Part shown: piece after piece, positions 32,536-50,244 of the stretch | How positions within the stretch are numbered: the first letter of the stretch is position 1 | How the letters are laid out: every line of letters begins with the position of its first letter | Assembly (NCBI GenBank): GCA_965261975.1 | Contig: CBDHEC010000036.1 | Location: forward strand, 1-64,000 | Direction: 5' to 3' | Source: Alphaproteobacteria bacterium | Lineage (GTDB): Bacteria; Pseudomonadota; Alphaproteobacteria; UBA6615 | DNA length: 64,000 nt | Position numbers and translations under genes: made by a program | Notes under the pieces: generated by a model | Database searches by the model: none | Told to the model about the DNA's origin: nothing | The model's input: the letters and a program-made list of their open reading frames with translations, nothing else

Positions 32536-32628
32536 CACTCTCTCCTGAGGGCCTCTGCATAAGAGGCCAGTTCGCATTGCCGTGACCCGAGCTTTGCACG
32601 TGTGCGCCCATGGTGTAAGCCCCGCGGC

Positions 32629-33222
32629 ATGTCCGATACGCCGACCGATTCCCTGTCTCTGACCGACCGCACCGCGCTGCCCGAGGGCTATGCGTTCTTG
32701 CTGGCGGAATACCCGCGTCCGGTCTGGGACGGGCACCCGAACAATGGTCAGTGGTGCCAGTTCTGGCTGCAGCGTCACCAGATGTTCCGGGATTATTCGG
32801 CCGCACTGACCGACGCCTGCGAACAGCTCGCCGACGGCAAGGTCGAGGCGGCGGCGTTTCACGAATGGTTCGTGCCGCGGGTCAATTTCTACTTCGGCGA
32901 GATCGATACCCACCACAAGGTCGAGGAGTATCACTATTTCCCGGCGCTCGCGCAGGCCGACATCAAGATGGCCCGCGGGATCGAGCTGCTCGAGGGCGAC
33001 CACAAAGTGGTGCATGACCGGCTGATGGCCGCGCACGGCGCGGTCGTGGCACTGGATGGGGCGATCCGCGAGGCGCCCGCCGATATTGCCTCGGCGGCGC
33101 CCGCCGCACGGGACGGGATCGACGCGCTGGGGACGGGGCTGGCGCGTCACCTCGATGACGAGGAGGACATCATTGTGCCGCTGATCCTCGACCGTTCCGA
33201 GCCGGTGCTCGGGATCGGGTAG
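32629..33222 (+). CDS. Hemerythrin-domain protein
   Basis: WLQRHQMFR, HHKVEEYHYFP, LEGDH, HLDDEE. Confidence 0.82.
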   Translation: MSDTPTDSLSLTDRTALPEGYAFLLAEYPRPVWDGHPNNGQWCQFWLQRHQMFRDYSAALTDACEQLADGKVEAAAFHEWFVPRVNFYFGEIDTHHKVEEYHYFPALAQADIKMARGIELLEGDHKVVHDRLMAAHGAVVALDGAIREAPADIASAAPAARDGIDALGTGLARHLDDEEDIIVPLILDRSEPVLGIG

Positions 33223-33225
33223 GGG

Positions 33226-34674
33226 CTATTCCAGCCGGTTGAGGCCGTCGAAGGCGGCCGTCTTGTAGCATTCGGCCAGGGTCGGGTAGTTGAACACCGT
33301 ATCGACGAAATAGTCGATCGTGCCGCTGTGGGCCATCAAGGCCTGGCCGATATGGATGAGTTCCGAGGCACCTTCGCCCAGGATGCTCACACCCAGAATT
33401 TCGCGGGTCTCGACGTGGAACAGGATCTTCAGCATGCCGGTCGCATCGCCGATGATCTGGCCGCGGGAGATTTCCTTGTAAAACGCCTTGCCCACCTCGT
33501 AGGGCACCCCTTTGGCTGTGAGTTCCTCTTCGTTGGCACCCACCACCGAGATTTCCGGGATCGTATAGATGCCGTAGGGGAAGAGTTGGGCGACGCCGGA
33601 CACCGACGCATCGAAGGCGTGGCAGGCGGCGAGGCGGCCCTGTTCCATGGATGTTGACGCGAGGCTGGGAAAGCCGATGACATCGCCGGCGGCGAAGATG
33701 TTGGGGACATTGGTGCGGTAGTTCGCGTCTACCGTCAGGCGGCCGCGTTCGTCGGCGTCGAGGCCGGCGGCATCGAGATTGAGCGCGCCGGTCGCGCCGG
33801 TGCGCCCGACGCTGTAGAGCGCCTTGGCGGCCACGACCTGTTTGCCGCTTTCCAGCACCACGCGCACATGCGCGCCATTGGCGCCGTCCTCACGGGCGAT
33901 GGATTCGACGCCTTCGCCCAGGCGCAGGGTGACGCGGTTCTGGCGCATCAGGTAGGCCAGCGCGTCGGTGATCTCGCCATCCACGAAGTCGAGCAGTCGC
34001 GGGCGCTTGTCGATCAGGGTCACGCGCACGCCGAGTGTGGCAAAGATGGTGGCGTATTCCAGCCCGATGACCCCGGCGCCGATGACGACGAGAGTGCGAG
34101 GCAACTCCTCCAGATCGAGGATGTCGTCGCTGGTGAAAATGGTTTGGCCGTCGAACGGGATATCGGAAGACCGGGTCGTCTCGGTGCCCACGGCGATGAC
34201 GATCCTGTCCGCGGTCACCGCGCGCTGGCCGCGACCGTCGAAATAGTCGAGGCGAACGGTGTTGGCATCGGCGAAGGTCGCCGTCGCCTCGATCACCAGC
34301 ACGCCGTTGCGGCGCAGTTGGTGGTGGGTGACGTCGATCTCGTTGCGGATCACATGGTCGGCGCGGAACAGCAGGTCCGACATGGCGATATCCTGCTTCA
34401 CCACATAGGACGCGCCATACACGTTGCGCTCGCGGTAGCCCGACAGGTGCATGGCGGGCTCGCGCAGGGTCTTGGACGGGATGGTGCCGGTGTTGATACA
34501 CACCCCGCCCACGACGGCACGGCGCTCGATGATGGCGGCCCTCTTGCCCAGCTTGGCGGCCTGGATCGCGGCGCGCTGACCGGCCGGCCCCGACCCCATG
34601 ACGATCAGGTCGAAATCATGACCCTTGCCGGTCGTCGATTGGCCGGCAAGCTCCGGTGTCGTCTGGTCGAGCAT
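33226..34674 (-). CDS. sthA: Soluble (Si-specific) pyridine nucleotide transhydrogenase
   Basis: GSGPAG, GGVCINTGTIPSK (CxxxxT), GIYTIPEIS, FNYPTLAECYK. Confidence 0.92.
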   Translation of the reverse strand: MLDQTTPELAGQSTTGKGHDFDLIVMGSGPAGQRAAIQAAKLGKRAAIIERRAVVGGVCINTGTIPSKTLREPAMHLSGYRERNVYGASYVVKQDIAMSDLLFRADHVIRNEIDVTHHQLRRNGVLVIEATATFADANTVRLDYFDGRGQRAVTADRIVIAVGTETTRSSDIPFDGQTIFTSDDILDLEELPRTLVVIGAGVIGLEYATIFATLGVRVTLIDKRPRLLDFVDGEITDALAYLMRQNRVTLRLGEGVESIAREDGANGAHVRVVLESGKQVVAAKALYSVGRTGATGALNLDAAGLDADERGRLTVDANYRTNVPNIFAAGDVIGFPSLASTSMEQGRLAACHAFDASVSGVAQLFPYGIYTIPEISVVGANEEELTAKGVPYEVGKAFYKEISRGQIIGDATGMLKILFHVETREILGVSILGEGASELIHIGQALMAHSGTIDYFVDTVFNYPTLAECYKTAAFDGLNRLE

Positions 34675-34780
34675 GTGCGTTCCCCGTTTCAAACGGCGCG
34701 CAGGCGCCGGACAGGGGACCAGAATCGCCTGTTTTGGTTAAGAAACCCTTGGTTGTGTGCAGATACCGCCGGGACGTTAC

Positions 34781-35602
34781 CTATCCCGGCTCGCGTTCGC
34801 CTCGCAAATAGACGAGCCAGTACACCAAGGCGACGAAAACGCTGCCGCCGATGATGTTGCCGATTGTGACCGAAACCAAGTTTGCGGCTATCGCGCCGAA
34901 CGCGACCCCTTCGGCGCCGAGCAGCCAGCCCAGCGGCCGGAGGTACATGTTTGCGACCGAATGCTCGAAGCCGAGAGCCACAAAGGCGGTAATCGGGAAA
35001 ACGATTGCCAGGATCTTGCCGGTGACGCGATGTGCGCTCATGGACAACCAGACCGCGAGGCAGACCAGCGCATTGCACAGAATGGCGCGCACGAAGGCCT
35101 CGAACCAGGTCGTGGAAACCTTGCCGGTCGCTATTGTAACGGCGGTCTCGGCGACCGCCCCGTCACCCAGGTCGAGGGTGCCGGACCAGAAGACCATGAC
35201 CGCTGTTGCCCCGGCGCCCACGAAGTTTGCGATATAGACGATCCCCCAGTTTCGCAAAAGTTTCCCGGTCGTGACCTTCCGGTCTGCCCAGGCCATGACG
35301 ATCAGGTTGTTTCCGGTAAACAGTTCCGCACCGGCGATGATCACCAGGATCAGTCCCAGTGAGAATACGAGACCGCCGATCAGGCGGGTCGGCCCGAATC
35401 CGAGCGTGCTGCCGGTGATCGAGAGCGTGAAGAACATCGCACCAAACGCGATGAAGGCGCCGGCGAGAATGCCGAGCACGACCAGCGGCAGCAGCGGAAG
35501 GTTCGCCTTCCGGACCCCGATGTTCTCGACCAGATGGGCGATTTCGGCAGGCGCATAAGGGTCGCGGCCGGTGTTTGGGGTTTCAGGCGTGATGCTCGTC
35601 AT
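34781..35602 (-). CDS. Formate/nitrite transporter (FNT) family channel
   Basis: LAGAFIAFG, GAELFTGN, GFEHSVANM, VTIGNIIGG. Confidence 0.92.
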   Translation of the reverse strand: MTSITPETPNTGRDPYAPAEIAHLVENIGVRKANLPLLPLVVLGILAGAFIAFGAMFFTLSITGSTLGFGPTRLIGGLVFSLGLILVIIAGAELFTGNNLIVMAWADRKVTTGKLLRNWGIVYIANFVGAGATAVMVFWSGTLDLGDGAVAETAVTIATGKVSTTWFEAFVRAILCNALVCLAVWLSMSAHRVTGKILAIVFPITAFVALGFEHSVANMYLRPLGWLLGAEGVAFGAIAANLVSVTIGNIIGGSVFVALVYWLVYLRGEREPG

Positions 35603-35636
35603 GGCGCAATCCTAGCGCGGCACCATGCATGGTCGT

Positions 35637-35675: not shown

Positions 35676-36881
35676 TCAGTCCAGCGCGTTTGCCGCGCGA
35701 AGGCCGGCGATCATCGACGATCCCATCATGAAGCCGTAGCTTTTTTGCGGGTTCTCGGCGGTCGCGCGCATCTCGTCCTGGTTCTTGAGGCGTTCGGCGG
35801 GGTCTTTCTCGGCGATGAACTTGGTATTCCGGATCGTCTGCAGGCGAACATCCTCCAGCGCGACGTGACGGCGTTGGCGGGTGTAGCGGTCGAGAATGTC
35901 TTCGTCGGCCTCGCCACGCCAGATCTGTCCCATCTTCTCGGCGAAGTTGACCGCGTCATGGACGCCGGAATTCATGCCCATGCCGCCCATGGGCGAATTG
36001 ATGTGGGCGGCATCGCCGCCGATGATCATTCGCCCCTTGCGGAAATCCTCCGCGACCCGCTGGTGGATCGCCCAGATGTTCCGGTGCAGTTCGACGACAG
36101 CGCCGGACTTGCCGAAGAAGGCGGCCATGCGGGCCTCGGCCACATCGTCGCGCACCGCCACGTCATCAGCCTCGCCCTCGCGGGCCGAGAAGGTAACGCG
36201 CCAGTATTCCGGCAGGTGCAGGATTACGCACCATTCGTCGGGGTCGGAGATATAGGCGACCCCGGCGATATCGGGCATGGCTTCGCTGACGTCGAAAGTC
36301 GTGCCGTACTGGACGACTTTTTCATCGTAGGTGAAGCCGTCGAAGCCGACACCCAGGGATTTCCGAATGCTGGAGCGCGAGCCGTCGGCGCCGAACACGT
36401 ACCGGCCGTCGAAGCTCTCCTCGCCGTCGGGTGTTCGTGCGCGCACGGAAACGCTGTCGCCATCCTGGGTTGCGCCCAGCACCTCATGGGAGAAGCGCAC
36501 GTCGACGTTGGGATGGGCTTCGAGCTTGCCGTAGAGGGCGCGGTTCAGCTCCATCTGCTCGCATTGCACACGGTAGGGGTATTTCGTCTCGTCCTTCAGG
36601 GCGGCCAGATCGAATTCGGCGACGACGCCGGTGTGCCGGTCGCGGAACTGCCAGACCGGGGTGATCCGCCCGTCGTTGAGCACCGCATCGACCATGCCGA
36701 GTGCGTCGAGATATTCCAGCGTCGGCGGGTGGAAGGTCGTCGCGCGACGGTGATCCTGCGGTGCGTCCTGCTGCTCCAGCAGCAGCACCGGAATATCCTG
36801 GTTGGCGAGTGATAGTGCGGCAATCAACCCGGTCGGGCCGCCACCGGCGACGATGATCCGGTCGTTAGGGTCTGTGGACAT
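35676..36881 (-). CDS. FAD-dependent monooxygenase (MhpA/PheA-like)
   Basis: VAGGGPTG, FGADG, GDAAHINSPMGGMGMNSG. Confidence 0.9.
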   Translation of the reverse strand: MSTDPNDRIIVAGGGPTGLIAALSLANQDIPVLLLEQQDAPQDHRRATTFHPPTLEYLDALGMVDAVLNDGRITPVWQFRDRHTGVVAEFDLAALKDETKYPYRVQCEQMELNRALYGKLEAHPNVDVRFSHEVLGATQDGDSVSVRARTPDGEESFDGRYVFGADGSRSSIRKSLGVGFDGFTYDEKVVQYGTTFDVSEAMPDIAGVAYISDPDEWCVILHLPEYWRVTFSAREGEADDVAVRDDVAEARMAAFFGKSGAVVELHRNIWAIHQRVAEDFRKGRMIIGGDAAHINSPMGGMGMNSGVHDAVNFAEKMGQIWRGEADEDILDRYTRQRRHVALEDVRLQTIRNTKFIAEKDPAERLKNQDEMRATAENPQKSYGFMMGSSMIAGLRAANALD

Positions 36882-36996
36882 GCATGTGCACCGCGAAAGT
36901 TTGATCGATGCGTAATTGTTACGCGATTGCCGGGTTTCGTAAAAGCTCGTGGGGTGCTGCTTGACCCCGGTGTTTCACACCGTCAAACTCAATTTC

Positions 36997-37752
36997 ATGA
37001 GTATGAATGATGGCGTGAAGACAGCGGTACGCACGGTCAACCTGTTCGAGGCATTTTCGCGTCGCAAGGGGCCGATGACCCTGACCCAGATATCGGAGGC
37101 CCTGTCGGCGCCGATCAGCAGCTGCCACGGTCTGGTCCGGACGCTCAGCGCCAAGGGGTATCTCTACACGTCTGAACGAAACCGGGCGATTTACCCGACC
37201 AAGCGCCTGCTTGAGGTCGCCAACACGATTGCCGCCCATGACCCGGTGCTGGAAAGCATTGTCCCGCAGCTTGAAGTGCTGCGCGACGAGACCAACGAAA
37301 CCATCCTGCTCGGTCGCCGCCAGGGGGAGACGATCCTTTATCTGGATGTGATCGAGGGCGGCCAAACGTTGCGCTATTCCGCAGGCGCGGGCGATATCAA
37401 GCCGATGCATTCGAGTGCCATCGGCAAGGCGTTTCTCGGCCGCCTGGACGATGCCGAACGCGCCGCGCTGGTGGCTCGCTTGCCCCTCGATCTGCACACG
37501 CCCAACACGATCACCGAGCGCGCGACACTGGAAGCGGATTTGGCGGAGGGAATTGCCAAGGGTTACTTCGTGACCCGTGGCGAGAATGTCGTCGATGTGA
37601 TGGGGCTGGCGACCACGGCGGATGTCTATGGCGAGGCCATGGGCATTGCGGTCGCGGGGCCGCTCGTGCGGATGGAGGCGGGCGAGATCGAGCTCGCCGC
37701 ACAGCTCCTGGCCGCGAAAGCGCGGCTCGAGGCTCTCGGAGACAGTTCATGA
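36997..37752 (+). CDS. IclR family transcriptional regulator
   Basis: N-terminal HTH, PMHSSAIGKAFL, GIAVAGP; start 36997 or 37003. Confidence 0.88.
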   Translation: MSMNDGVKTAVRTVNLFEAFSRRKGPMTLTQISEALSAPISSCHGLVRTLSAKGYLYTSERNRAIYPTKRLLEVANTIAAHDPVLESIVPQLEVLRDETNETILLGRRQGETILYLDVIEGGQTLRYSAGAGDIKPMHSSAIGKAFLGRLDDAERAALVARLPLDLHTPNTITERATLEADLAEGIAKGYFVTRGENVVDVMGLATTADVYGEAMGIAVAGPLVRMEAGEIELAAQLLAAKARLEALGDSS

Positions 37753-38300
37753 GCGACACGGTAATCAGACCCGACGCTGCCACACCCGATTGGGCCGATG
37801 CGCTCTATGACGTGCTGGTGCAGCAGAATATTCGCCAGGTTGCCTATGTGCCCGATGCCGGGCATTCCCGTCTGATCGAGCGGTGCGAGGACAACCCGGA
37901 CATGTGTGCGACCACTCTCACCACCGAGGAAGACGGTGTGGCAATGCTGGCCGGCGCCTGGCTGGGTGGTGATCGCGGTGTGTTGCTCATGCAGTCGAGC
38001 GGCGTGGGCAACTGTGTGAACATGTTCACCCTGATCGAGAATTGCCGGATCCCGCTTGTGGCGGTGATCACGATGCGCGGCGAGTGGGGTGAATTTAACC
38101 CGTGGCAGGCCCAGATGGGCCAGGCAACGCCCGACGTGCTCACCCGGATGGGGGTGCAGGCACATCGGGTCGATGCCCCCGAAGAGGCCGCACCGACATT
38201 GGACGCGGCGATCCGGCAATCCTTCGACGGGTCGCTCGCCTCGGCGGTGCTGCTTTCCCAGCGTCTGATCGGCCGCAAGGCCTTCACGGAGGAGGGATGA
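37749..38300 (+). CDS. ThDP-dependent decarboxylase alpha subunit (sulfopyruvate/phosphonopyruvate decarboxylase-like)
   Basis: YVPD, TTEEDGVAMLAGAWLGG, LLMQSSGVGN, RGEWGE. Confidence 0.85.
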   Translation: MSDTVIRPDAATPDWADALYDVLVQQNIRQVAYVPDAGHSRLIERCEDNPDMCATTLTTEEDGVAMLAGAWLGGDRGVLLMQSSGVGNCVNMFTLIENCRIPLVAVITMRGEWGEFNPWQAQMGQATPDVLTRMGVQAHRVDAPEEAAPTLDAAIRQSFDGSLASAVLLSQRLIGRKAFTEEG

Positions 38301-38301
38301 C

Positions 38302-38886
38302 ATGACAGGCCCTCTTCTCGACCGACGCGAGGCCGTCGCGCGGCTTCTGCAGGACCGCGGCGAACTGCTCGTGGTCTCCGGGCTCGGCTCGGCGACCTAT
38401 GACTGCGCGGCAGCGGGCGACGACCCGCGCAACTTCTATCTCTGGGGCGCCATGGGTGGGACCGCCGCCCTGGCGCTCGGGTTGGCGCAGGCCCAGCCGG
38501 ACCGGCCGGTCGCCGCGATAACCGGCGACGGGGACATGCTGATGGGGCTCGGCAGCCTGGCGACGATCGGTACCGCCAAACCGGCGAACCTGTCGGTGAT
38601 CGTGCTCGACAACGAGGTGTATGGCGAGACCGGCGCCCAGCCAACGGCCACGGCCGGCGGCGTGAGCCTCGTGGAGGTGGCACGCGGCTGCGGGATCGAG
38701 GCACTCGAGGATATCCGGGACATGAACGCGCTGGGTACGCTTGCAGGGCGCATGCAGCGCTGCGAGGGGCCGCTTTTCGCCAACATCAAGATCGAGGCGG
38801 GCGAGCATCCACGCGTGCTCCCCGCACGCGACGGGGCCTATCTGCGCTCGCGGTTCCGCGAGGCGGTATTGGGCACCGGCCCGTAA
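38302..38886 (+). CDS. ThDP-dependent decarboxylase beta subunit
   Basis: GAMG, GDGDMLMGLG...LDNEVYGETG ThDP motif. Confidence 0.85.
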   Translation: MTGPLLDRREAVARLLQDRGELLVVSGLGSATYDCAAAGDDPRNFYLWGAMGGTAALALGLAQAQPDRPVAAITGDGDMLMGLGSLATIGTAKPANLSVIVLDNEVYGETGAQPTATAGGVSLVEVARGCGIEALEDIRDMNALGTLAGRMQRCEGPLFANIKIEAGEHPRVLPARDGAYLRSRFREAVLGTGP

Positions 38887-38924: not shown

Positions 38925-39809
38925 ATGGCTGAGAAGGTTGGAATTCTGGGACTTGGACTGATCGGCGGTATCACGGCCGAGATCCTGATGCCCGAAGGCT
39001 ACGAATGTGCAGCCGTTCGCCGCCCGAGCACGGAGAGCTTTCCCGACACTGGCGGCAAGTTGTTTGATACGGCACGCGAGCTCGCCGAATGGTCCGACGT
39101 GGTGATTTCGGCGCTCCCGAGCACCGACGCCTCCCGCACCGCGCTGGAAGGCCCCGACGGCTTGTTGGCAGGTGCCCATGAAGGCCTGACCATCATCGAG
39201 ATGAACACCTTCCCGGTGGGTGAGAAGGAACGTGTACGCGACCAGGTGGCTGACACGCCGGCGAAAATCATCGATTGCCCGCTCAGCGGTACCCAGCCGA
39301 TCATTCGCGCGGGCAAGGGTGTCATCATGATGAGCGGCGACGAGGCCTTGTGTGAATCCGTGAAGCCGATGCTGGAGCTCGTTTGCCCGAAGACGTTTTA
39401 TGTTGGCGAGTACGGCACGGGCATCAAGCTCAAGCTGATGATCAACTTCATGGTCGGCGCGAATACGGTGGCCTTGGCCGAAGGCATGCTGTTCGGCGCC
39501 CAGATGGGGCTCGATCCCGAGCAGATGATCGATATCGTGGGACCCAGTGCCGCCGGGTCGGTCGTGTTCGGCATGCGCGCGGGCATCATCAAGGACCGGT
39601 CATGGCAGCCCTGCGCGGGCCCCAGCAAGCTGCTGTGGAAGGATCTCGATATCGTCGAGGAACAGGCCGATGCGCTGGGCCTGTCCGCGCCGTTGCTGCG
39701 GATCTGCAACGACTATTACAAGAAGATCGAGAAGGCCGGGCGGCTCGAGGATGAGTGCTCGGTGGTCTACGAGATCCTCGAGAGCGAGATCAAGGCGGCT
39801 GCGGAATAG
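38925..39809 (+). CDS. NAD(P)-dependent beta-hydroxyacid dehydrogenase family protein
   Basis: GILGLGLIG, DCPLSG, KLMIN. Confidence 0.85.
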   Translation: MAEKVGILGLGLIGGITAEILMPEGYECAAVRRPSTESFPDTGGKLFDTARELAEWSDVVISALPSTDASRTALEGPDGLLAGAHEGLTIIEMNTFPVGEKERVRDQVADTPAKIIDCPLSGTQPIIRAGKGVIMMSGDEALCESVKPMLELVCPKTFYVGEYGTGIKLKLMINFMVGANTVALAEGMLFGAQMGLDPEQMIDIVGPSAAGSVVFGMRAGIIKDRSWQPCAGPSKLLWKDLDIVEEQADALGLSAPLLRICNDYYKKIEKAGRLEDECSVVYEILESEIKAAAE

Positions 39810-39836: not shown

Positions 39837-40751
39837 CTACATATGCGAGAAGAGAACGCGACCGGCGGTCGGCATGTCGGCCGTCAGCACCTTTCCGCTC
39901 GATGATTCCGTGATGTAGAGGGTCTTGCCGTCGGGGCCGCCATAGGCGCAATTCGTGGTCAGCGGGCCGGCGCAGGAATTGATCCGGTGGATGGGTTCGC
40001 CATTGGCCGCGAAGACCCAGATCGCGCCGAACCCCACGTGACAAACGAGAATGCTGTCGTCCGCGCCCGCCGCCATGCCGTCGGGGCCGGTGCCGCCCGA
40101 CATCCGCGCGAAACGCCCGACCTGGTCGGCGCGGCCGCGGTCGGCCAGCCGCATGCGCCAGACCGCGTTGTCGCGAGTGAGGCCGACATACAGGATTTTC
40201 TCGTCGCTGCTCAGGACCAGCCCGTTCGGGCTCGGCAGGTCCGCACAGACGAGTTCGAGGCCGCCGTCCGCATGCAGGCAGAACACCCGGCCCGAACGGT
40301 CGATCAGGTCCGACGTGCCCTGGTCGGTGAAGTACAGATCGCCGTTCGACGCGAAGGTCAGGTCGTTGGTGCCGCGAAACCGCTCATTGGTGTTGCGCAC
40401 CAGATAGGGCTCGACGGTGCCGGCCTCGGGGTCGAGGCGCATCAGGCCGTGATAATGGTCGGCGATGATGCCGTGTCCGTCCTTGTGGAAGACCAGGCCG
40501 TTCGGTTCGCCGTCATAGGTGCAGGCGAGTTCGATGTCCCCGGCGGGGGATATCCGGAACAGCCGGCCCCAGGCGACGTCGACGAGCCAAAGATTGCCGG
40601 CGCGATCGAATGAAGGGCCTTCCAGGAAACTGGGCGTGTTCGGGCGGCCGAACAGGAGCTTTGCCCATTCGGACTCACGGTCGTTGATGCCGTGGATGGC
40701 ATTCACATCGGCGAACACCCGGGTTTCGATGACGGGGGGCGGAGCGAACAT
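39837..40751 (-). CDS. SMP-30/gluconolactonase family protein
   Basis: FLEGPSFD, PNGL, NDL, PDG, TTNCAYGG. Confidence 0.88.
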   Translation of the reverse strand: MFAPPPVIETRVFADVNAIHGINDRESEWAKLLFGRPNTPSFLEGPSFDRAGNLWLVDVAWGRLFRISPAGDIELACTYDGEPNGLVFHKDGHGIIADHYHGLMRLDPEAGTVEPYLVRNTNERFRGTNDLTFASNGDLYFTDQGTSDLIDRSGRVFCLHADGGLELVCADLPSPNGLVLSSDEKILYVGLTRDNAVWRMRLADRGRADQVGRFARMSGGTGPDGMAAGADDSILVCHVGFGAIWVFAANGEPIHRINSCAGPLTTNCAYGGPDGKTLYITESSSGKVLTADMPTAGRVLFSHM

Positions 40752-40756
40752 TCCGG

Positions 40757-41656
40757 TCAGGCCCCGTTCGTGCGGTTCAGGCGCGCCACGATCGCGTCGA
40801 ACAGGTCACCGGGGTTCTGGTCGAGGACATCTTCGCCGGCTGTCTCGAGCACCTCGTCGATGCGCCGGGAGATCAGCGACTGGGCTTGGTAACGCGCCCG
40901 CGCACGCCGCACTGCGTCGGCGTCGCCATGGTCGGCGCGCCAGGCAGTGTGGGCATTGATCGCGTCGTCGAGGGCTGCGAAGCCCTGGGGGTCGTCGCGT
41001 GATGTCATGATGACGGGGGGTGTCCAGCCGTCGGCGCTTTGATGGGCGGCCACTTGCTCGATCTCGGCGGCCATGAGGTCGGCACCCGGCAAGTCGGCCT
41101 TGTTCACCACATAGATATCCGCCATCTCGAGGATGCCGGCCTTCATCGCCTGGATCGCGTCGCCGGAATGGGGCACCAGGATGAGCACCACCGTGTCGAC
41201 CAGTGTTCGGATGGTGTATTCGGCCTGCCCGACGCCCACGGTCTCGAGAATAATCTCGTCGAAGCCGTGCCCTTCCATGGCGTTGAGCAAATCGGCGGTG
41301 TTGTCCGCCAGGCCATCATGGGCGCGGCGCGAGGGAATTGAGCGGATGAAGATATCCGGGTCGTCGGCGATGGCATCCATGCGGATACGGTCGCCGAGAA
41401 GCGAGCCCTGGGACACCGGGCTCGACGGATCGACCGCCAGGACAGCGACCTTCCGGTCGGTCCGTTTTCGAAGTTTGGTGAGCCGGGCGATGAGCGAACT
41501 CTTGCCGGCCCCCGGCGCGCCGGTGATGCCGATACGCGGCAGATCGCCTGCGGCACCCTCACTGTGTTGGGCCAGGGTCTCCGATACGTCGGCATTGGCG
41601 ATGCGCGACAGGGCGCGGCTGAGGTTGCGCCGCGGATTTCGTGAGGTGCCGCTCAT
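40757..41656 (-). CDS. meaB: MeaB/ArgK G-protein chaperone of B12 mutases
   Basis: GAPGAGKSS, AVDPSS...LGDRIRM, ETVGVGQ, NKAD. Confidence 0.88.
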   Translation of the reverse strand: MSGTSRNPRRNLSRALSRIANADVSETLAQHSEGAAGDLPRIGITGAPGAGKSSLIARLTKLRKRTDRKVAVLAVDPSSPVSQGSLLGDRIRMDAIADDPDIFIRSIPSRRAHDGLADNTADLLNAMEGHGFDEIILETVGVGQAEYTIRTLVDTVVLILVPHSGDAIQAMKAGILEMADIYVVNKADLPGADLMAAEIEQVAAHQSADGWTPPVIMTSRDDPQGFAALDDAINAHTAWRADHGDADAVRRARARYQAQSLISRRIDEVLETAGEDVLDQNPGDLFDAIVARLNRTNGA

Positions 41657-42795
41657 TTGGCCGCAGCGGCGGGCGGGGTGCCCAGGATTTCGTCGGTATG
41701 TTCGCCCAGAAGCGGCGGCAGGCCGTAGCGCGGCGGATGATCGGTCATCTTGATCGGGTTGCCCACCACCCGCAGCGCACCATCGGGCGTTGGGATCACC
41801 GCGATCATCTCGCGTGATGCGGCCATGTCCCCGTCGAGTGCCTGGTCGAGGGTTTCGACACCGGAAACCACAAGGCCCTCATTGCCCAGTATTTCAACCC
41901 AATGCGCGGTGGCTTGTTTCTTCATGAGGTCGCCGACGGCGCCAATCACGGCGTCGCGGTTCTCCGAGCGTGCGCTCATGGTCGCGAGGTTCGGGTCGCG
42001 CGCCTGGTCGTGCCAGCCGACAACCTCGCAGAATTTCTGCCAGAACTTGTCGGTCGAGATGAACAACATCAGGTGCCCGTCACGGGTCTCGAAGACCTGG
42101 GCCGGGACCATGTAGGGATGCGCGCTGTGCGACGTTCGCTGCGGCACGATGCCATGGTTGAGGTAGCCCGACGCCAGGTAGTTGAGCTGGGCAAGCATGG
42201 TGTCGAAGAGCGACACATCGACCTGGCCGCCCTTGCCCTCGATGATTTTTGCCAGCAACCCGATGGCACCCATCATGCCGGTGGAGTTGTCGACGGCAGA
42301 ATAGCCGGCCTTGGTCGGCGCGGTGCCGGGATCGCCGGTCAGGGTCATGACGCCGGTGAGCGCCTGGACGATGTAGTCATAGGCGGGTTTGTCGGCATAG
42401 GGGCCGTCGAGACCGAACCCCGTCAATGCCAGGCATACCAGGTTCGGATTGTGCGTTTTCAGCTCGTCATGGGTCAGGCCGAAGCGCCGAATGGTGGACG
42501 GGCGCAGATTGGTAATCAGGCCCTGCGCATCGGCGGCCAACGCGCCGAGTTGAGATTTGCCCGCCGGGGTGTTCAGGTCGAGGACGATGGATCTCTTGTT
42601 GCGGTTGAGGCTCGCGAAATAGTCGTTATAGGGCCCCGTGAACTGCTTGGTAATGTTTCGGGCCATGTCGCCGCCGGGCGGCTCGACCTTGATCACGTCG
42701 GCACCCAGATCGCCCAGAATCATGCTGCAAAACGGTCCCGCGAGGACGTGCGCGACCTCGATGATCCGGACGCCGGCGAGGGGGCCTTCGCTCAC
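41653..42795 (-). CDS. Family III CoA-transferase (CaiB/BaiF)
   Basis: PLAGVRI..LAGP..LGADVIKVEPPGGD, NRNKRS, PPLLGEHT. Confidence 0.92.
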   Translation of the reverse strand: MSEGPLAGVRIIEVAHVLAGPFCSMILGDLGADVIKVEPPGGDMARNITKQFTGPYNDYFASLNRNKRSIVLDLNTPAGKSQLGALAADAQGLITNLRPSTIRRFGLTHDELKTHNPNLVCLALTGFGLDGPYADKPAYDYIVQALTGVMTLTGDPGTAPTKAGYSAVDNSTGMMGAIGLLAKIIEGKGGQVDVSLFDTMLAQLNYLASGYLNHGIVPQRTSHSAHPYMVPAQVFETRDGHLMLFISTDKFWQKFCEVVGWHDQARDPNLATMSARSENRDAVIGAVGDLMKKQATAHWVEILGNEGLVVSGVETLDQALDGDMAASREMIAVIPTPDGALRVVGNPIKMTDHPPRYGLPPLLGEHTDEILGTPPAAAAK

Positions 42796-43190
42796 CCGCC
42801 GAGCTCCGCATCGAGGGCGTCGACCACATCATTGACCGCCATTTCGGCCGTGAAGATTCCCCGGGCACCGGCATCGCGCAGTTCGTCATGGTCTTCCGCC
42901 GGGATGGTGCCACCGACAAACACCCGAATATCACCGGCATCGAGTTCGTTGAGGCAGCGCACCGTCTCCTCGACCAGTTCCTTATGGCTGCCCGACAGGA
43001 TGGACAGTCCCACCGCGTCGACATCCTCGTCGACCGCGACACGGGCGATGTAGTCGGGCGTGCGGCGCAGGCCGGTATAGATCACGTCGGCGCCGGCATC
43101 ACGCAGCGCCAGGGCGATGATCTTGGCACCCACATCGTGCCCGTCGAGGCCCGGTTTCGCGATCAGAATGCGTTTTCCGTTCAGGCTCAT
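42792..43190 (-). CDS. Cobalamin-binding subunit of acyl-CoA mutase
   Basis: KPGLDGHDVG (DxHxxG), GLSILSG, VGG. Confidence 0.93.
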   Translation of the reverse strand: MSLNGKRILIAKPGLDGHDVGAKIIALALRDAGADVIYTGLRRTPDYIARVAVDEDVDAVGLSILSGSHKELVEETVRCLNELDAGDIRVFVGGTIPAEDHDELRDAGARGIFTAEMAVNDVVDALDAELGG

Positions 43191-43199
43191 GATGCGATC

Positions 43200-44843
43200 C
43201 TACAGCCTCACCGGTTCTTCGAATTCACCCCATTGGCGCTTCAGGGTGGCCACCATTTCACCGACGGTTGCATAAGCATGGCAGCAATCGATGAGGTACG
43301 GCATCAGGTTCTTGCTGTCGTCCGCCGCAGCGGCCTCCAGCGCGGCGAGTGACGTTGCGACCGCATCATTGTCACGGCTGTCGCGCACCCGCTCGAATTT
43401 CTCGACGACACGGGCGCTGGCGCCCGGGTCGAGCTTGAAGAGCTCGGCAACACCGTCGTTCTGATCCTCGCGGCGGAAGTGATTCTGGCCGACGACGACC
43501 GTCTCGCCGCTATCGATCTTGTGTTTGCGCTCGGATGCCCGCTGCGCAATCTTCATCTGCAGCCAGCCGTCTTCGACCGCCTTGGTCACGCCGCCATAGG
43601 TCTCGATATCGTCGATGACCTTCATGATCTCGTCTTCCATCTGGTCGGTCAGCCATTCCACATAATGGCTGCCGCCCAACGGATCGACGGTGCGCGCGAT
43701 GCCGGATTCATGAGCCACGATCTGCTGGGTGCGGACCGCGATCTCCGCCGAATGCTCGGTCGGGATCTGGTAGGCCTCGTCGAAGGCGGCGGTGAAGATC
43801 GATTGGGCGCCGCCCATCACGGCCGCCATGTTCTCGATGCCGACGCGGACGACGTTGTTGTAGGGCTGGGCGCCGACCAGGGACGAACCGCCGCAAACGA
43901 CGCCAAATCGAAACATAAGCGCCTTGGGATCCTGCACGCCGTAGCGATCCTGCAACAACTTGGCCCAAAGTCGCCGGCCCGCCCGGAACTTGCAGACCTC
44001 TTCGAAGAAATCCATGTGGACATAGAAGAAGAAACTGAGCCGGCGTGCGAACTTCTCGACATCGCCGCCCCGGCGGATCAATTCGTCGATATAGGCCAGG
44101 CCGTTGGCCAGGGTGTAGCCCATCTCCTCGACCGCCGTGCAGCCGGCGTCGCGCACATGCGCCCCGGCGATGCTGATAGCGTTGAAGCGCGGCGTCTGGT
44201 CGTAGGAGAAAAGAATCGTATCGGCGATAAGCCGCATGGACGGGCGTACCGGGAAAATCCAGGTGCCGCGCGCCACATATTCCTTGAGGATGTCGTTCTG
44301 GATGGTGCCGGTGAGTTTCTCGCGGGGCACACCCTTCTTGTCGGCCACGGCGCAATACATGGCGTAGATGATCGACGCGGTGCCGTTGATTGTGAAAGAG
44401 GTCGAGATGCCGCCGAGATCAATACCATCGAAAAGAATCTCGGCCTCCGCGAGGCTCGAGAGCGAGACGCCGACCTTGCCGACTTCGGTTTTTGCGATCG
44501 GGTCGACCGGGTCGTAGCCGCACTGGGTCGGCAGGTCGAGTGCGACCGAGAGGCCGGTCTGGCCTTGATCGAGCAGGAACCGATAGCGTTCGTTTGATTC
44601 CTCCGCCGTCCCGAATCCCGAATATTGCCGGATCGTCCAGAGCCGTCCCCGGAAACCGTCGGGGAAGATGCCGCGTGTGTACGGGAATTCGCCCGGCATT
44701 CCCTGATCAGGGTTACTGACCATGTCCGGTGTCACCACCGGCGGCACTTCGATGCCCGAAGGGGTCGCGGTGGAGGGTTTGGTCGGCGGTTCGCGCCGCG
44801 CCGCGTCGGTTTCGTTTTTCCGGGAGGCAGAGTTGTCGGCCAT
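43200..44843 (-). CDS. Acyl-CoA mutase substrate-binding subunit (MCM family, atypical active site)
   Basis: PYTRG, RQYSGF, GLSVALDLPTQ, QNDILKEY..R, RTQQ, DPLGGS. Confidence 0.92.
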   Translation of the reverse strand: MADNSASRKNETDAARREPPTKPSTATPSGIEVPPVVTPDMVSNPDQGMPGEFPYTRGIFPDGFRGRLWTIRQYSGFGTAEESNERYRFLLDQGQTGLSVALDLPTQCGYDPVDPIAKTEVGKVGVSLSSLAEAEILFDGIDLGGISTSFTINGTASIIYAMYCAVADKKGVPREKLTGTIQNDILKEYVARGTWIFPVRPSMRLIADTILFSYDQTPRFNAISIAGAHVRDAGCTAVEEMGYTLANGLAYIDELIRRGGDVEKFARRLSFFFYVHMDFFEEVCKFRAGRRLWAKLLQDRYGVQDPKALMFRFGVVCGGSSLVGAQPYNNVVRVGIENMAAVMGGAQSIFTAAFDEAYQIPTEHSAEIAVRTQQIVAHESGIARTVDPLGGSHYVEWLTDQMEDEIMKVIDDIETYGGVTKAVEDGWLQMKIAQRASERKHKIDSGETVVVGQNHFRREDQNDGVAELFKLDPGASARVVEKFERVRDSRDNDAVATSLAALEAAAADDSKNLMPYLIDCCHAYATVGEMVATLKRQWGEFEEPVRL

Positions 44844-44847
44844 CGGG

Positions 44848-45624
44848 TCAGCCTTTCTTCGCGGGAAGCACCTTTTCGGCGGCCTCCCAGTGGTCGTCAT
44901 GAACCCAGGTTTTCACGAACATGCGTGTCTCGGCGTCTTGCATCGTGGCACGTGAATCTCCGCGCCGGTGTGCATCGCTGACGGCCTTGAACGCGCGCAT
45001 GGACTGGGCCTTCTGCTTTCGGATCGGCTCGAGGAAAGCCTCGATGGTGTCGTCGATGTTTTCGGTTTCGGGCCCGATTGCGTCATACAGCCCGATATCA
45101 AGCGCGGTCGGCGCGTCGAGCATCTCGCCGGTGCTCATGAGTTTGAGCCCCCGCGCACGCCCGACCAGGTCGAGCAGGTCCGGCCCGCCGCCCCAGGCGG
45201 TGGCGAGGGCGAGACGACCCTGCACAAAGCCGATGCGCGCATGCGCTGCCGCGACCCGGAAATCGCAGGCGACGGCGAGTTCGGCACCGCCGCCGAAGGC
45301 ATTGCCGTTGAGGCCGGCGATCACGGGCACCGGGAAATCGCGGATCGCGTTGAACGCCGCCTTGGCATCGAGTGCCATTGTCTCCGCTTCCGCCTCGGTG
45401 CGAAGGCCGGCGAGTTCACGCAGGTCGCCGCCCGCGGCAAATGTCTTTTCGCCCGCGCCGCGCAAGACCGCCGCGACGAGACTCTCATCAGCCGCCGCCG
45501 CACGAAATGTTTCGCCGATCGCGGCGATGATCGAAATTGCGAGCGCGTTGTGTTTCTCCACCCGGTCGATGGTCACGTACAGGACGCGATCACGTGTTTC
45601 GCTCAGGAGATGTGCGTCGCTCAT
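44848..45624 (-). CDS. Enoyl-CoA hydratase/isomerase family protein
   Basis: FAAGGDL, PVIAGLNGNAFGGGAELAVACDFR. Confidence 0.9.
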   Translation of the reverse strand: MSDAHLLSETRDRVLYVTIDRVEKHNALAISIIAAIGETFRAAAADESLVAAVLRGAGEKTFAAGGDLRELAGLRTEAEAETMALDAKAAFNAIRDFPVPVIAGLNGNAFGGGAELAVACDFRVAAAHARIGFVQGRLALATAWGGGPDLLDLVGRARGLKLMSTGEMLDAPTALDIGLYDAIGPETENIDDTIEAFLEPIRKQKAQSMRAFKAVSDAHRRGDSRATMQDAETRMFVKTWVHDDHWEAAEKVLPAKKG

Positions 45625-46791: not shown

Positions 46792-47914
46792 CTACTGGGC
46801 GGCGGCGGCGGAATCCTCGTCTTCCGGCACCAGGTCGGCGAGGTTCGGCATGACTTCCTTGGCGAACAGCGACATGTTGTCGAGCCAATCCTGGAAGGGT
46901 TCGTAAACATACTGGACCTGCAGAACGGTGCCGAAGCCTCCCGTGTCGTCGTAGAGCTTGCGCAGTTTCTCGGTGACCGTATCGGGACTGCCGACGATCC
47001 AGATGTTGTCGCAGATATATTCCGCGGTCAGATCCTCGTCCTTGATGTCCTCGTTCTCCTTGTAGAGATCGACGACGCCGAGTGATTTGAGGACGTTGTA
47101 CATATAGTCGTTATAGGCCTTCGGGCCATGCCGCCGTTGAGCACATGGTCGCGTGCTTCCGCATCGGTTTTGCCGACATAGATCTCGCGCGCCACCCGCC
47201 AGTCCTTGCGGCTTGGCGTCCGGCCCGTTTCCTTGCCGCGCCCTGTTTCACCGCTTCCCAATGGGTGTTGAGGTTGGCGGCGGGCAGATAGTTGACGCTC
47301 ATCGGCATCCAGCCCTCGCGTCCCGCCGTCACCAGCGATTCCGAGTATTTGTGCAGTCCGGCCACGGCGATTGGCGGATGCGGGTCCTGATAGGGCCGGA
47401 TGTGATGGTAGAGCGGGATCTGCGGCATCGGTTCGGGCACCTTGAACTGCCAGAACTTGCCATTGTGTTCGAACGGGTCCTCTTCGGTCCAAAGACGCGT
47501 GGATGGCGTCGATCGCCTCGCGCATCCGCTCGCGATGCTCGCCTTCCTGATAGTCGATGTCGAAGAAGTGGAAATCGGTCGGGTGCGCCGCCCGCACCGA
47601 TGCCGAAGTTGAGGCGGCCTTTCGAGAGGTGATCGAGATACGCGATGCGCAAGTGCCACGAGACGCGGGTCGTGCATCGGCAGCAACACAACGCCGGTGC
47701 CGACCCGGATCTGCTCGGTCTGTGCGAATACGGTCGCGGCGAACAGGTCGGTCGCGGGAATGGGCTCCCACGGGATGGTGTAATGCTCGCCCATCCAGCC
47801 CTCGGTGTATCCGAGCTTGTCGGCATGGATATAGGTCTCGATGTCGCGGTGATAGTTGCCGTTCACGTCGCCCCCGGGCGGACGCAGAGGCATGCTGAAC
47901 ATTCCGTATTTCAT
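46792..47914 (-). pseudogene. Luciferase-like (LLM) flavin monooxygenase, multiply frameshifted (possibly assembly error)
   Basis: WMGEH, GTGVVLLP, LDHLSKGRLNFG, RPYQDPHPPI, IVGSPDTV spread over three frames, about 5 shifts. Confidence 0.75.
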
Positions 47915-48118: not shown

Positions 48119-48907
48119 ATGCTGATTGGCAAGAAGGGCGAGGCGAAAACCGCTATCGAGACGGCCGACGCGAGCTCGATCACGGTGCGCGGCAAGGATT
48201 TGTGCAACGAGGTGATGGGCCATGCCTCGATCGCCGAATTCTTCTTTTTCCATCTCACCGGTCGCGAGCCGAGTGCCGATCAGGCCTTCTTCATGGATGT
48301 GCTGGTGGTCGCGCTGGCCGAACACGGGCTGACGCCGAGCGTCCAGGCTGCGCGCATGACCCTGGCGGCGGCCCCCGAAGCGCTGCAGGGCGCGGTGGCC
48401 GCGGGACTGCTCGGGTGTCGGATCGGTCATCCTCGGCAGTGCGGATGTGTGCGGGGACATGCTCGACGATGCCGCAAACGCGCATCGAAGGAGGCGAGTC
48501 ACGCAGAGGCCGCGGCACTGGCGATCGCGCAGGGAATATCAAGGACGGCCGGAAAATTCATCCCCGGTTTCGGGCACCCCATTCACCACCCCGTCGATCC
48601 GCGGGCCGTCCGAATCCTCGAGCTGGCCGATGAACGCGGGGTCTCGGGACGCCATGTCCATGCGTTGCGCGCGTTTCCCGACGCCGTTGCCGAAGTCTGG
48701 GGCAAGCCGCTGCCGATGAACCTGCAGGGACCCATGGCGGCCGTCTTGCTCGATCTGGACTATCCCGAAGGCGGCGATCCGCGGCATTCCCGATCCTGGC
48801 CCGCACCGATGGGACTGATCGGTCACCTGAATGAAGAGACCGAACGCCCGATCGGATTCCTGCTGGCCCATCACGGTGAAGAAGCCATTAGCTATGACGG
48901 GGACTAG
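48119..48907 (+). CDS. Citryl-CoA lyase / citrate synthase-like protein (internal compensated frameshifts)
   Basis: VRGKDL, AEHGLTPS, IPGFGHPIH..DPR; SVILGSADVCG lies in an alternative frame. Confidence 0.8.
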   Translation: MLIGKKGEAKTAIETADASSITVRGKDLCNEVMGHASIAEFFFFHLTGREPSADQAFFMDVLVVALAEHGLTPSVQAARMTLAAAPEALQGAVAAGLLGCRIGHPRQCGCVRGHARRCRKRASKEASHAEAAALAIAQGISRTAGKFIPGFGHPIHHPVDPRAVRILELADERGVSGRHVHALRAFPDAVAEVWGKPLPMNLQGPMAAVLLDLDYPEGGDPRHSRSWPAPMGLIGHLNEETERPIGFLLAHHGEEAISYDGD

Positions 48908-48912
48908 ACTAG

Positions 48913-50244
48913 ATGTCGGCTGCCGAGCTCTTTGATCCCGAGGCCGAAACCCGGGAATTCGCGGACCAGAAACAGAAAGACGAGCCGGTTTACCGCAGGC
49001 AGATTGAGTATCTGTTCGCGCGTTCCGAATTCTATCGCGAGAAGTTTCGCACGGCTGGTTTCAAGACCCCGGAATCGGTCGGTGGACTGGATGATCTGCG
49101 CCACCTGCCGTTCACGGTCAAAGATGAATTGCGCGCCAGCCAGGCCGACCATCTCCCGCTGGGCAACCAGCTGGCAGCACCGCTCGAAGATGTGGTGCGG
49201 ATCTATTCAACCAGCGGCACATCCGGTGCGCCGCTCTATATTCCGGTCACCCTGGGCGACCTCAAGCGATGGATTCACACGTCCAACCGCAGTTATTTCG
49301 CCGCCGGAATTCGGCCTCACCACCGGGTCGTCACCACCTACAATTCCGGGCCGTTTGCGGCGGGGGCGGTGCATGAATCCATGATCGCGCTGGGTGTATG
49401 CATGGTACCGGTGGGCAGCGGCAATACCGACCGGCTGCTGACCGCCCTGGAACGCTTCCAGGTCCAGGCGATGCCCGGGACGCCGTCGTATTTTCTGTAT
49501 ATCGCCGAGGCCGCGCGGGCCCGCGGCATCGATCCGGCGGCCTGCGGGCTGGAGACGCTTGTGGCCGGTGGTGAGCCGGGGGGCGGTGAGCCCGAAGTCC
49601 GTGCTCAGATCGAGGAGGCGTTTAACGCGAAAGTACATGAGGTCCTGGGGCTCGGCGAGCTGTCGATTTCCATGTTCGGGGAGGGGCCGGAACAGGACGG
49701 CATGAACTTCCTCGCCCGGGACTATATCCATATGGAGCTGATCGACCCGGACACCGAGGAACCACTGCCGTTCGAGGACGGGGTCCGGGGCGAGCCGGTC
49801 TACACCCATCTTCAACAGGAAGCTGCGCCGCTGCTGCGCTATCGTTCCCGCGACCATGTGACCGTGCGCATGGGCCCCGTCGCCAGTGGGCGCACCGGAC
49901 CGCGCATTCGCTGTATCGGCCGGACCGACGACATGCTCATCGTGCGGGGGGTCAACGTCTTTCCCAGTGCGATCCGGGAGGTGGTGAACCTGTTTCGCCC
50001 GGACGTGAGCGGAATCATGCTGGTGCGCCCGACCCAGGCAGGCGTGCAGCAATCACCGCCACTGCCGGTTCATGTCGAGGCGGCCGAGGGGGCCGAGCCC
50101 GGACCCGGGTTGGCGGAAGCGATCGAGAAGGAGATCCGCTCGAAGCTGGTGGTCACGACCAAGGTCGAGATCGTGACGTTCGGGAGTCTGCCGCGGACCG
50201 ACTACAAGACGAAGCTCGTGGACTATTCGGACGCCGCCGACTAA
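48913..50244 (+). CDS. Phenylacetate-CoA ligase family protein
   Basis: LPFTVKDEL, STSGTSG, GGEPG, PLLRYR, GRTDDMLIVRGVNVFP. Confidence 0.88.
   Translation: MSAAELFDPEAETREFADQKQKDEPVYRRQIEYLFARSEFYREKFRTAGFKTPESVGGLDDLRHLPFTVKDELRASQADHLPLGNQLAAPLEDVVRIYSTSGTSGAPLYIPVTLGDLKRWIHTSNRSYFAAGIRPHHRVVTTYNSGPFAAGAVHESMIALGVCMVPVGSGNTDRLLTALERFQVQAMPGTPSYFLYIAEAARARGIDPAACGLETLVAGGEPGGGEPEVRAQIEEAFNAKVHEVLGLGELSISMFGEGPEQDGMNFLARDYIHMELIDPDTEEPLPFEDGVRGEPVYTHLQQEAAPLLRYRSRDHVTVRMGPVASGRTGPRIRCIGRTDDMLIVRGVNVFPSAIREVVNLFRPDVSGIMLVRPTQAGVQQSPPLPVHVEAAEGAEPGPGLAEAIEKEIRSKLVVTTKVEIVTFGSLPRTDYKTKLVDYSDAAD

Follow-up and report, generated by a model that had tools for sequence, protein, structure and literature searches.

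To our knowledge, only a handful of specificities of adenosylcobalamin (AdoCbl)-dependent acyl-CoA mutases have been assayed: those of methylmalonyl-CoA mutase (MCM), isobutyryl-CoA mutase (ICM/IcmF), 2-hydroxyisobutyryl-CoA mutase (HCM), ethylmalonyl-CoA mutase (ECM), and PCM. In Escherichia coli, the sbm operon (scpA-argK-scpB-scpC), which takes succinate to propionate, brings together in one operon the same four functions that are considered here: mutase, chaperone, crotonase-fold protein, and CoA-transferase. Two mutases for bulky substrates (IaaGH and ActD/MatB) have so far been proposed from genetics or pathway logic. In anaerobic indoleacetate degradation, IaaGH is described as a phenylsuccinyl-CoA/benzylmalonyl-CoA mutase whose partner is the CoA-transferase IaaL (PMC8360864); a second report proposes, from deletions and 13C labeling, that ActD/MatBQ converts (2R)-hexylmalonyl-CoA to 2-pentylsuccinyl-CoA in actinonin and matlystatin biosynthesis, and it finds only few close orthologues in actinomycetes (PMC5719088). 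Here, we analyze a mutase operon on the minus strand at positions 39837–45624 of a 64,000-nucleotide stretch of an alphaproteobacterial contig (CBDHEC010000036.1); we refer to that whole stretch as the window.

An open reading frame (ORF) listing and family scans resolved six genes in this interval, ordered 5′ to 3′ as a crotonase-fold protein, the mutase large subunit (mutL), the B12-binding small subunit (mutS), a family III CoA-transferase, a MeaB-type G-protein chaperone, and an SMP-30 lactonase (Table 1). The large subunit probably starts at M20 (position 44843) rather than at the ORF end (44900), because its relatives are ~547 aa long and the window ORF is 566 aa. Assuming that start, 4 nt separate the crotonase gene from mutL and 9 nt separate mutL from mutS; mutS and the CoA-transferase gene overlap by GTGA, the CoA-transferase and MeaB genes overlap by ATGA, and the lactonase gene follows MeaB after 5 nt. 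The operon is confirmed as real and translationally coupled, and the families and coordinates that the initial annotation had given for six coupled genes were borne out, with junctions ranging from a 4-nt overlap to a 9-nt gap. A contig of sequencing run X1 is identical to the window over 39837–45550. We conclude that the mutase represents a real, conserved, and uncharacterized specificity class within an established enzyme family and that the operon around it has an ordinary catabolic architecture; taken as a whole, the earlier interpretation of this operon as the site of a candidate new carbon-skeleton rearrangement is partly supported.

The mutase active site and its clade

By their family scores, mutL and mutS belong to the AdoCbl-dependent acyl-CoA mutase superfamily: mutL passes the cut-offs of PF01642 (649.7 bits vs 22.1) and TIGR00641 (647.4 vs 303.8), and mutS carries the DxHxxG His-on motif as DGHDVG. 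The large subunit passes neither the MCM equivalog model NF006944 (567.4 bits, cut-off 876) nor the IcmF equivalog model (253 bits, cut-off 1500). NCBIfam has no specific models for the ECM, HCM, PCM, and Iaa mutases, and 13 of 13 representatives match generic models only. Among solved structures, the best-scoring relative of mutL is HcmAB (4R3U, 480.7 bits), which has the same split architecture, followed by human MCM (456.6 bits); solved MCMs score 383–457 bits and solved IcmF 215.8 bits.

Alignment to 4R3U and 2XIJ indicated that mutL keeps the equivalents of Tyr89, Gln197, Arg207, His244, and Glu370, whose roles we take to be those of the MCM literature, and that it replaces Tyr243 by Ala, Glu247 by Asp, the HxQ strand by GxV, and the HTN strand by FTA. 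The corresponding motifs start at 91 (RQY), 206 (KEYVAR), 246 (GAHVRD), 333 (GVVCGG), and 367 (SIFTAA) in the 566-aa ORF. The initial annotation had read the first two motifs as keeping the carboxylate-binding Tyr and Arg, and both are kept in 27/27 rows of the clade described below. It had read the other three as replacing canonical motifs; these too are present, and the single other mutase of the window's genome, a canonical fused MCM on contig C50 (44% identical to mutL), has GYHMQE, HCQTSG, and SLHTNS at the aligned places. The Hcm structure keeps GYH, HCQT, and HTN and has Ile, Asp, and Gln as clamp residues where mutL has Tyr93, Ala120, and Arg211, and the Icm pattern (Phe/Gln) is likewise absent from mutL. 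These patterns are seen in the alignments; the roles of the Hcm and Icm residues are presumed.

We aligned 262 sequences (the window protein, the mutases of loci L001–L112, and 150 representatives of 50%-identity clusters drawn from a search of 1.84 billion proteins), discarded the 36 rows whose gap content exceeded 12%, and computed a midpoint-rooted FastTree LG+gamma tree from the other 226. The 26 terminals that carry the YAQR-AHD signature all group together (support 1.0), to the exclusion of every other sequence. The equivalents of Tyr89, Gln197, Arg207, and His244 (YAQR.H) are present in 27/27 clade rows, and the Glu370 equivalent (in FDEA) is seen in the window protein and the clade rows displayed. 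Positions were compared across 27 clade rows (two of which are the window protein), 101 MCM-type rows, and 9 ECM-like rows. In all, eight positions are invariant within the clade (27/27 rows) and hold another fixed residue in 93–101 of the 101 MCM-type rows; in the numbering of the 566-aa ORF, with the clade residue before the MCM-type residue, these are 214 (W, Y), 245 (A, S), 247 (A, Y; the Tyr243 equivalent), 251 (D, E; the Glu247 equivalent), 330 (F, L), 333 (G, H), 335 (V, Q), and 369 (F, H). S245, Y247, E251, H333, Q335, and H369, which belong to the MCM motifs SGYHxxE, HxQT, and HTN, are invariant in 101/101 MCM-type rows, whereas clade members read A, A, D, G, V, and F there throughout. 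Seven of the eight positions lie in or beside GAHVRD, GVVCGG, and SIFTAA, and W214 lies three residues past KEYVAR. These differences are not due to chance. Fold, B12/CoA machinery, and carboxylate clamp are common to the clade mutase and the MCMs (P. shermanii 1REQ, human 2XIJ, M. tuberculosis 6OXC, and E. coli ScpA), and both are served by a MeaB chaperone.

The successive sisters of the clade are two sets of divergent, unassigned representatives and then a group with the signature CGYHIRES/IAGGGG/ALCC; the direct sisters lack His244. We label the CGYHIRES group ECM-like because crotonyl-CoA carboxylase/reductase (Ccr) scores above cut-off in three of five carrier genomes and, in a fourth, occurs as fragments at contig ends (the fifth is 71% complete), and under this inferred label it is the nearest labeled group to the clade in the tree. 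With the ECM-like group standing in for Ecm/MeaA, the Tyr89/Arg207 clamp, His244, and W214 are common to both, and the polar residues of HxQ and HTN (H333, Q335, and H369) are lost on the same two strands. ECM-like rows, however, keep Tyr243 and Glu247 (positions 247 and 251) and read IAGGGG and ALCC, whereas the clade has Ala243, Asp247, GxV, and F. The ECM-like proteins are also fused, at ~655–690 aa, and co-occur with Ccr; the clade mutase is split and sits in a catabolic operon, and no Ccr was found in the window's genome. The window's mutL falls outside the Ccr-associated clade (support 1.0) and lacks the CGYHIRES/IAGGGG/ALCC signature. Phylogeny and alignment together thus set the clade apart from the MCM-, ICM-, HCM-, and ECM-like groups, as had been proposed for this mutase. 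The larger, more hydrophobic pocket proposed along with it is also supported: the same two strands are remodeled as in the ECM-like clade and Tyr243 is lost as well, changes that fit such a pocket.

The pattern AGAH[VF]RDA/RFG.V.GG/QS[IM]FT[AC]A was present in 18 of 80 loci from species genomes, and the remaining 62 had the canonical GYH/HxQT/HTN. Across the 150 cluster representatives (P0123–P0272), we observed well over 100 distinct 14-position active-site signatures, many of which keep the Tyr/Arg clamp and alter Tyr243, His244, or the two strands. The family probably holds several further mutase specificities, including that of the clade's direct sisters. At one alphaproteobacterial locus (L096, G388:C1:391692-395004), two large-subunit genes in tandem both show the Hcm-type Ile/Asp/Gln signature.

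Distribution, gene neighborhood, and partner proteins

The best 120 public relatives of mutL are all at least 73% identical to it and bear generic names only. Orthologues (at least 69% identity) occur in 7 of 401 alphaproteobacterial genomes, the window's own counted, with next matches at 47% or below; this tally takes in G240, which is flagged unpublished, has a canonical-type match only, and underlies nothing else reported here. Within the Ramlibacter order (Burkholderiales), 2 of 301 genomes have an orthologue, the centre genome counted, and a clade member is encoded on 7 of the 393 plasmid or chromid records that matched (Marinobacter, Sulfitobacter dubius, Diaphorobacter, and four Paraburkholderia), while a 53–60%-identical subclade occurs in Mycobacterium, Nocardia, Acidimicrobiia, other actinobacterial metagenome-assembled genomes, and Methylomirabilota. 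The clade is rare yet reaches across Proteobacteria, Actinobacteria, and Methylomirabilota. Because its members coexist with other mutases in single genomes, they are not redundant with these: MCM and ECM-like paralogues occur in G147, ECM-like and HCM-like paralogues in G164, an HCM-like paralogue in G161, and MCM both in G263 and in the genome of the window. In Billgrantia pellis (G402, L003), the clade mutase is the sole PF01642 match, and canonical MCM was not found there. A search of the open full-text literature, judged mainly on listings and abstracts, returned no published description of the clade or the operon.

Among 17 proteobacterial-type loci, mutS adjoins mutL in all 17, a crotonase gene is present in 15, a family III CoA-transferase gene is adjacent in 13, an IclR homologue (44–52% identity) is found no more than 2 kb from the mutase in 10, and MeaB is present in 9 (four of the remaining loci are short contigs). 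The conserved core consists of the IclR regulator, crotonase, mutL, mutS, CoA-transferase, and MeaB, with a carboxylate transporter often next in line. Of the operon content initially described, the six genes stand, but the conserved unit adds the regulator and, often, the transporter. The IclR-family gene that diverges from the operon in the window (36949–37752) is likely the regulator of the module. A transporter of the TRAP, TAXI-TRAP, TctC, or LIV type lies directly 3′ of the core in Sulfitobacter, Paraburkholderia, Diaphorobacter, Ramlibacter, and G129; the Paraburkholderia DctP-type binding protein scored 185 bits against 4MCO and the TAXI protein at most 97 bits, yielding no usable ligand clue. 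On a plasmid of Marinobacter sp. M3C (L124; NZ_CP092285.1, 11204–16865), IS5/IS630 and IS21 elements flank a cassette of crotonase, mutL, mutS, CoA-transferase, a MeaB-like gene, and cob(I)yrinic acid a,c-diamide adenosyltransferase, an arrangement suggesting that the module moves as a unit.

In the crotonase-fold protein, E115 aligns with E. coli FadB E119 and Q135 with FadB E139, and we take Glu119 and Glu139 to be the catalytic pair of FadB. Gln occupies position 135 in 13/13 operon-linked orthologues, and a non-orthologous Mycobacterium crotonase has Glu at the equivalent position. With Gln135 in place of the second catalytic Glu, the protein is probably not a standard hydratase, so the label "enoyl-CoA hydratase" given to it in the initial annotation did not hold; we consider it a candidate (substituted) malonyl-CoA decarboxylase. 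Orthology to E. coli ScpB was considered and rejected: the two are 24% identical and score 45 bits, weaker than scores against ordinary hydratases, which reach 114 bits.

The CoA-transferase is probably of the succinyl-CoA:dicarboxylate type. In NCBIfam it comes closest to the succinate-glutarate and succinyl-CoA:mesaconate CoA-transferases, with neither match reaching its cut-off, and its best relatives in the PDB are formyl-CoA transferase 10uh (203 bits), CaiB/BaiF 4ed9, YfdE, SUGCT, and Rv3272; against benzylsuccinate CoA-transferase, it scored 79 bits only. MeaB-type chaperones serve in B12 loading and repair, and the window's protein scores 252 bits with TIGR00750, above the equivalog cut-off of 240.75.

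The lactonase gene lies next to MeaB in the window, as had been noted, but no lactonase homologue was found in any of 29 related loci (29/29), and we conclude that it is a lineage-specific accessory gene outside the core. In a genome of the same family (G133), an amidase gene takes its place. A 5.9-kb contig of a relative from run X4 (~91% alike) has the MeaB-to-crotonase block in common with the window and skips 342 nt (window 39998–40341) and 29 nt (at 40538) within the lactonase gene; these gaps fit the lactonase being dispensable.

Proposed pathway and alternatives

With moderate confidence, we propose that the operon encodes an AdoCbl-dependent acyl-CoA mutase module of a distinct clade, organized like the E. 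coli sbm operon and acting on a bulky substituted succinate. We favor this parallel because the make-up of the module equals that of scpA-argK-scpB-scpC and because, in G164, a ScpC-family CoA-transferase (26% identity to ScpC) stands in place of the family III enzyme found elsewhere. A substituted succinate-type dicarboxylic acid would be imported and then activated by the family III CoA-transferase with succinyl-CoA as the CoA donor. The mutase, whose residues suggest that it shifts the thioester carbon between neighboring carbons of a succinyl/malonyl-type substrate, would convert the substituted succinyl-CoA to a substituted malonyl-CoA in a B12-dependent reaction. In the weakest step of the scheme, the Glu/Gln crotonase would most likely decarboxylate the product to a monocarboxylic acyl-CoA, or else carry out another single-base step. 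The IclR regulator would control the module. We expect the substituent to be bulky and mainly hydrophobic (alkyl, aryl, or 2,3-disubstituted) because Tyr243 is lost on top of the ECM-like remodeling and one Trp and two Phe are gained. A more specific form of the proposal is possible but in our view doubtful: a previously undescribed 1,2-rearrangement of a bulky or doubly substituted succinyl-CoA to a geminally substituted malonyl-CoA, which the Glu/Gln crotonase would decarboxylate while the CoA-transferase recycles CoA. Its substrates may be alkyl, aryl, or cyclic, such as cycloalkane-1,2-dicarboxyl-CoA. If this were true, the module would constitute a self-contained "substituted-succinate decarboxylation cycle," with CoA recycled by the CoA-transferase, and a new aerobic means of ridding imported dicarboxylic acids of their tertiary or quaternary branch points.

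Several observations weigh against the sbm-like proposal. The crotonase is no closer to ScpB than to ordinary hydratases, and it has Gly and Thr at the sites of His66 and Tyr140, which we take to be decarboxylase residues. No crotonase gene is adjacent to the mutase in the actinobacterial subclade, where the order is mutL, mutS, luciferase-like oxidoreductase, and CoA-transferase (4/4 resolved loci in each respect), and the third step of the pathway is therefore not universal. Three loci (L005, L114, and L115) lack the family III CoA-transferase. The genes outside the core (FMN 2-hydroxyacid dehydrogenases, TauD, 2-oxoacid:ferredoxin oxidoreductase, Ldh_2, P450s, thiolases, and a VanA-like oxygenase) vary by genome and therefore indicate no single substrate. 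The pocket roles of the replaced residues, including Q330 and N366, are themselves our assumption. The module also departs from the sbm operon in that its mutase pocket differs, its crotonase is not orthologous to ScpB, its CoA-transferase belongs to family III rather than to the ScpC family (G164 excepted), and an IclR regulator and a transporter are attached to it.

The proximity of the ECM-like group in the tree, together with the common W214 and the common loss of the HxQ/HTN polar residues, brings up a rather unlikely alternative, namely that the enzyme is a small-substrate C5-dicarboxylate mutase with ECM-like chemistry on methylsuccinyl/ethylmalonyl-CoA or an analogue (dimethylmalonyl-CoA), serving methylsuccinate-type acids with the crotonase as a real hydratase or epimerase. 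A CoA-transferase closest to short-dicarboxylate enzymes (succinate-glutarate, mesaconate, SUGCT, and YfdE) would suit that chemistry, but the clade is invariant at A247, D251, G333, V335, and F369, where the ECM-like rows have other residues, ECM-like paralogues coexist with the clade in G147 and G164, and the crotonase lacks the second hydratase Glu. In addition, a search of the window's genome (94.6% complete) with the Ccr model TIGR01751 (E ≤ 1e-30) gave no match. We likewise see little to recommend a second MCM isozyme, although relatives carry the name "methylmalonyl-CoA mutase" in public sources and the clade mutase is the sole PF01642 match in the Billgrantia pellis genome: mutL falls short of the MCM equivalog cut-off (567 vs 876), its eight clade-fixed positions differ from 93–101 of 101 MCM-type rows, and the window's genome already has a canonical MCM, rendering this reading very improbable. 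We judge to be just as improbable a role in organosulfonate catabolism, in which the Tyr/Arg clamp would bind a sulfonate and a sulfo-acyl-CoA (e.g., 3-sulfopropionyl-CoA) would be rearranged. Sulfopyruvate-decarboxylase-like TPP subunits in the window and G133, an Ldh_2/ComC-family dehydrogenase in G161, TauD in Ramlibacter, and luciferase-like oxidoreductases in Actinobacteria and G263 point in its direction, but every sulfonate-type match falls short of its curated cut-off and none recurs throughout the clade, the pocket changes toward hydrophobic residues that are ill-suited to a larger polar anion, and we know of no precedent.

An aerobic counterpart or orthologue of the proposed IaaGH (phenylsuccinyl-CoA to benzylmalonyl-CoA), acting on an aryl-substituted succinate, appears to us improbable, although less so than the sulfonate and isozyme readings. 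In the part of the source that we draw on, the Iaa pathway likewise pairs its mutase, for a bulky substituted succinyl-CoA, with a family III CoA-transferase, IaaL (PMC8360864). The clade has gained aromatic residues at W214, F330, and F369; a PaaK-like ligase and an FAD aromatic-type hydroxylase lie near the operon in the window; G133 has an amidase at the place of the window's lactonase; and the L005 locus has a VanA-like oxygenase. Neither beside the operon nor among the ~59 window ORFs scanned, however, did we find the iaa neighbors (IaaF-type acyl-CoA dehydrogenase, hydantoinase-like IaaCE, molybdenum hydroxylase, and IaaL), the sole molybdopterin-domain gene of the window lying at 1751–2800. 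No Iaa-like locus was recognized in the order-level search around Ramlibacter (301 genomes, 2 clade members), the CoA-transferase scored just 79 bits against benzylsuccinate CoA-transferase, and in several genomes the core is accompanied by a transporter alone. IaaGH is moreover anaerobic, whereas clade carriers appear to be aerobes because of the oxygenases in their neighborhoods; the two differ in gene context. The same holds for ActD/MatBQ, which in the portion of its report that we draw on resembles the clade in being a split mutase with a long alkyl substituent proposed on its malonyl/succinyl-CoA but differs in being biosynthetic, with Ccr, epimerase, and NRPS genes (PMC5719088). The window contains no Ccr, epimerase, or NRPS genes of that kind.

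Returning to the sbm-like module, its compactness means that in principle three enzymes and one binding protein would suffice to find the substrate, with the transporter binding proteins and the regulator as the cheapest route. Knowledge of that substrate would extend the list of B12 rearrangements and close a gap in aerobic branched-dicarboxylate degradation, a mutase with a large hydrophobic pocket would have engineering value, and the widespread annotation of clade genes as "methylmalonyl-CoA mutase" would be corrected.

Gene coordinates and flanking genes

Table 1. Genes of the mutase operon and its surroundings in the window.
Feature	Coordinates	Strand	Evidence or remark
Flavin-reductase-domain protein	31888–33225	-	Redox run beside IclR gene
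Pyridine-nucleotide disulfide oxidoreductase	33229–34737	-	Redox run beside IclR gene
Formate/nitrite-family transporter	34784–35611	-	Redox run beside IclR gene
FAD aromatic-type monooxygenase	35679–36974	-	Redox run beside IclR gene
IclR-family regulator, divergent from operon	36949–37752	+	Pfam HTH_IclR and IclR_C
Sulfopyruvate/phosphonopyruvate-decarboxylase-like TPP enzyme, alpha	37749–38300	+	Below equivalog cut-off
Sulfopyruvate/phosphonopyruvate-decarboxylase-like TPP enzyme, beta	38302–38886	+	Below equivalog cut-off
HIBADH-like dehydrogenase	38925–39809	+	Below equivalog cut-off
SMP-30/gluconolactonase-family lactonase (SGL)	39837–40751	-	PF08450 140.7 bits
MeaB-type G-protein chaperone	40757–41656	-	PF03308 243.6 bits, TIGR00750 252 bits
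Family III CoA-transferase (CoA_transf_3)	41653–42795	-	PF02515 364.6 bits
B12-binding small subunit (mutS), 132 aa	42792–43190	-	PF02310 77.5 bits, TIGR00640 139.3 bits
Acyl-CoA mutase large subunit (mutL)	43200–44843 (ORF to 44900)	-	PF01642 649.7 bits, TIGR00641 647.4 bits
Crotonase-fold protein (ECH_1)	44848–45624	-	ECH_1 129.8 bits
2OG/Fe(II) oxygenase, isopenicillin-N-synthase type	45672 to ~46709 (ORF to 46910)	-	DIOX_N and 2OG-FeII_Oxy

The 2OG/Fe(II) oxygenase gene lies 47 nt upstream of the crotonase gene. Its start is likely the Met near 46709, the Pfam match beginning at ORF residue 91. It is an accessory gene: homologues near the operon occur only in G133 (67% identity) and on the Diaphorobacter plasmid (44%, 5 kb off). 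Homologues of the TPP alpha and beta subunits and of the HIBADH-like dehydrogenase (56–75% identity) are found 4–6 kb from the mutase in G133 only.

Upstream of the oxygenase gene, a luciferase-like (LLM) gene (46900–47914, minus strand) is broken, with profile positions 1–86 and 89–116 in different frames. The contigs of relatives differ from the window in this region by 1–2-nt indels at five places, and the contig of run X1 differs by 59 letters and 5 gaps, with a 71-nt stretch replaced; the remnant is either a pseudogene or the product of mixed-strain assembly. The actinobacterial LLM proteins are 73–85% identical among themselves. A luciferase-like partner common to the window and the actinobacteria was considered and rejected, the window fragment giving no match to them at 1e-3. 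Beyond the remnant, a citryl-CoA-lyase-like gene (NF004868 242 bits, above the cut-off of 193) and then a PaaK-like acyl-CoA ligase gene occupy 48140–50244 on the plus strand and are transcribed away from the operon. The citryl-CoA-lyase-like gene probably starts near 48140; a long ORF from 47645 overlaps the LLM remnant.

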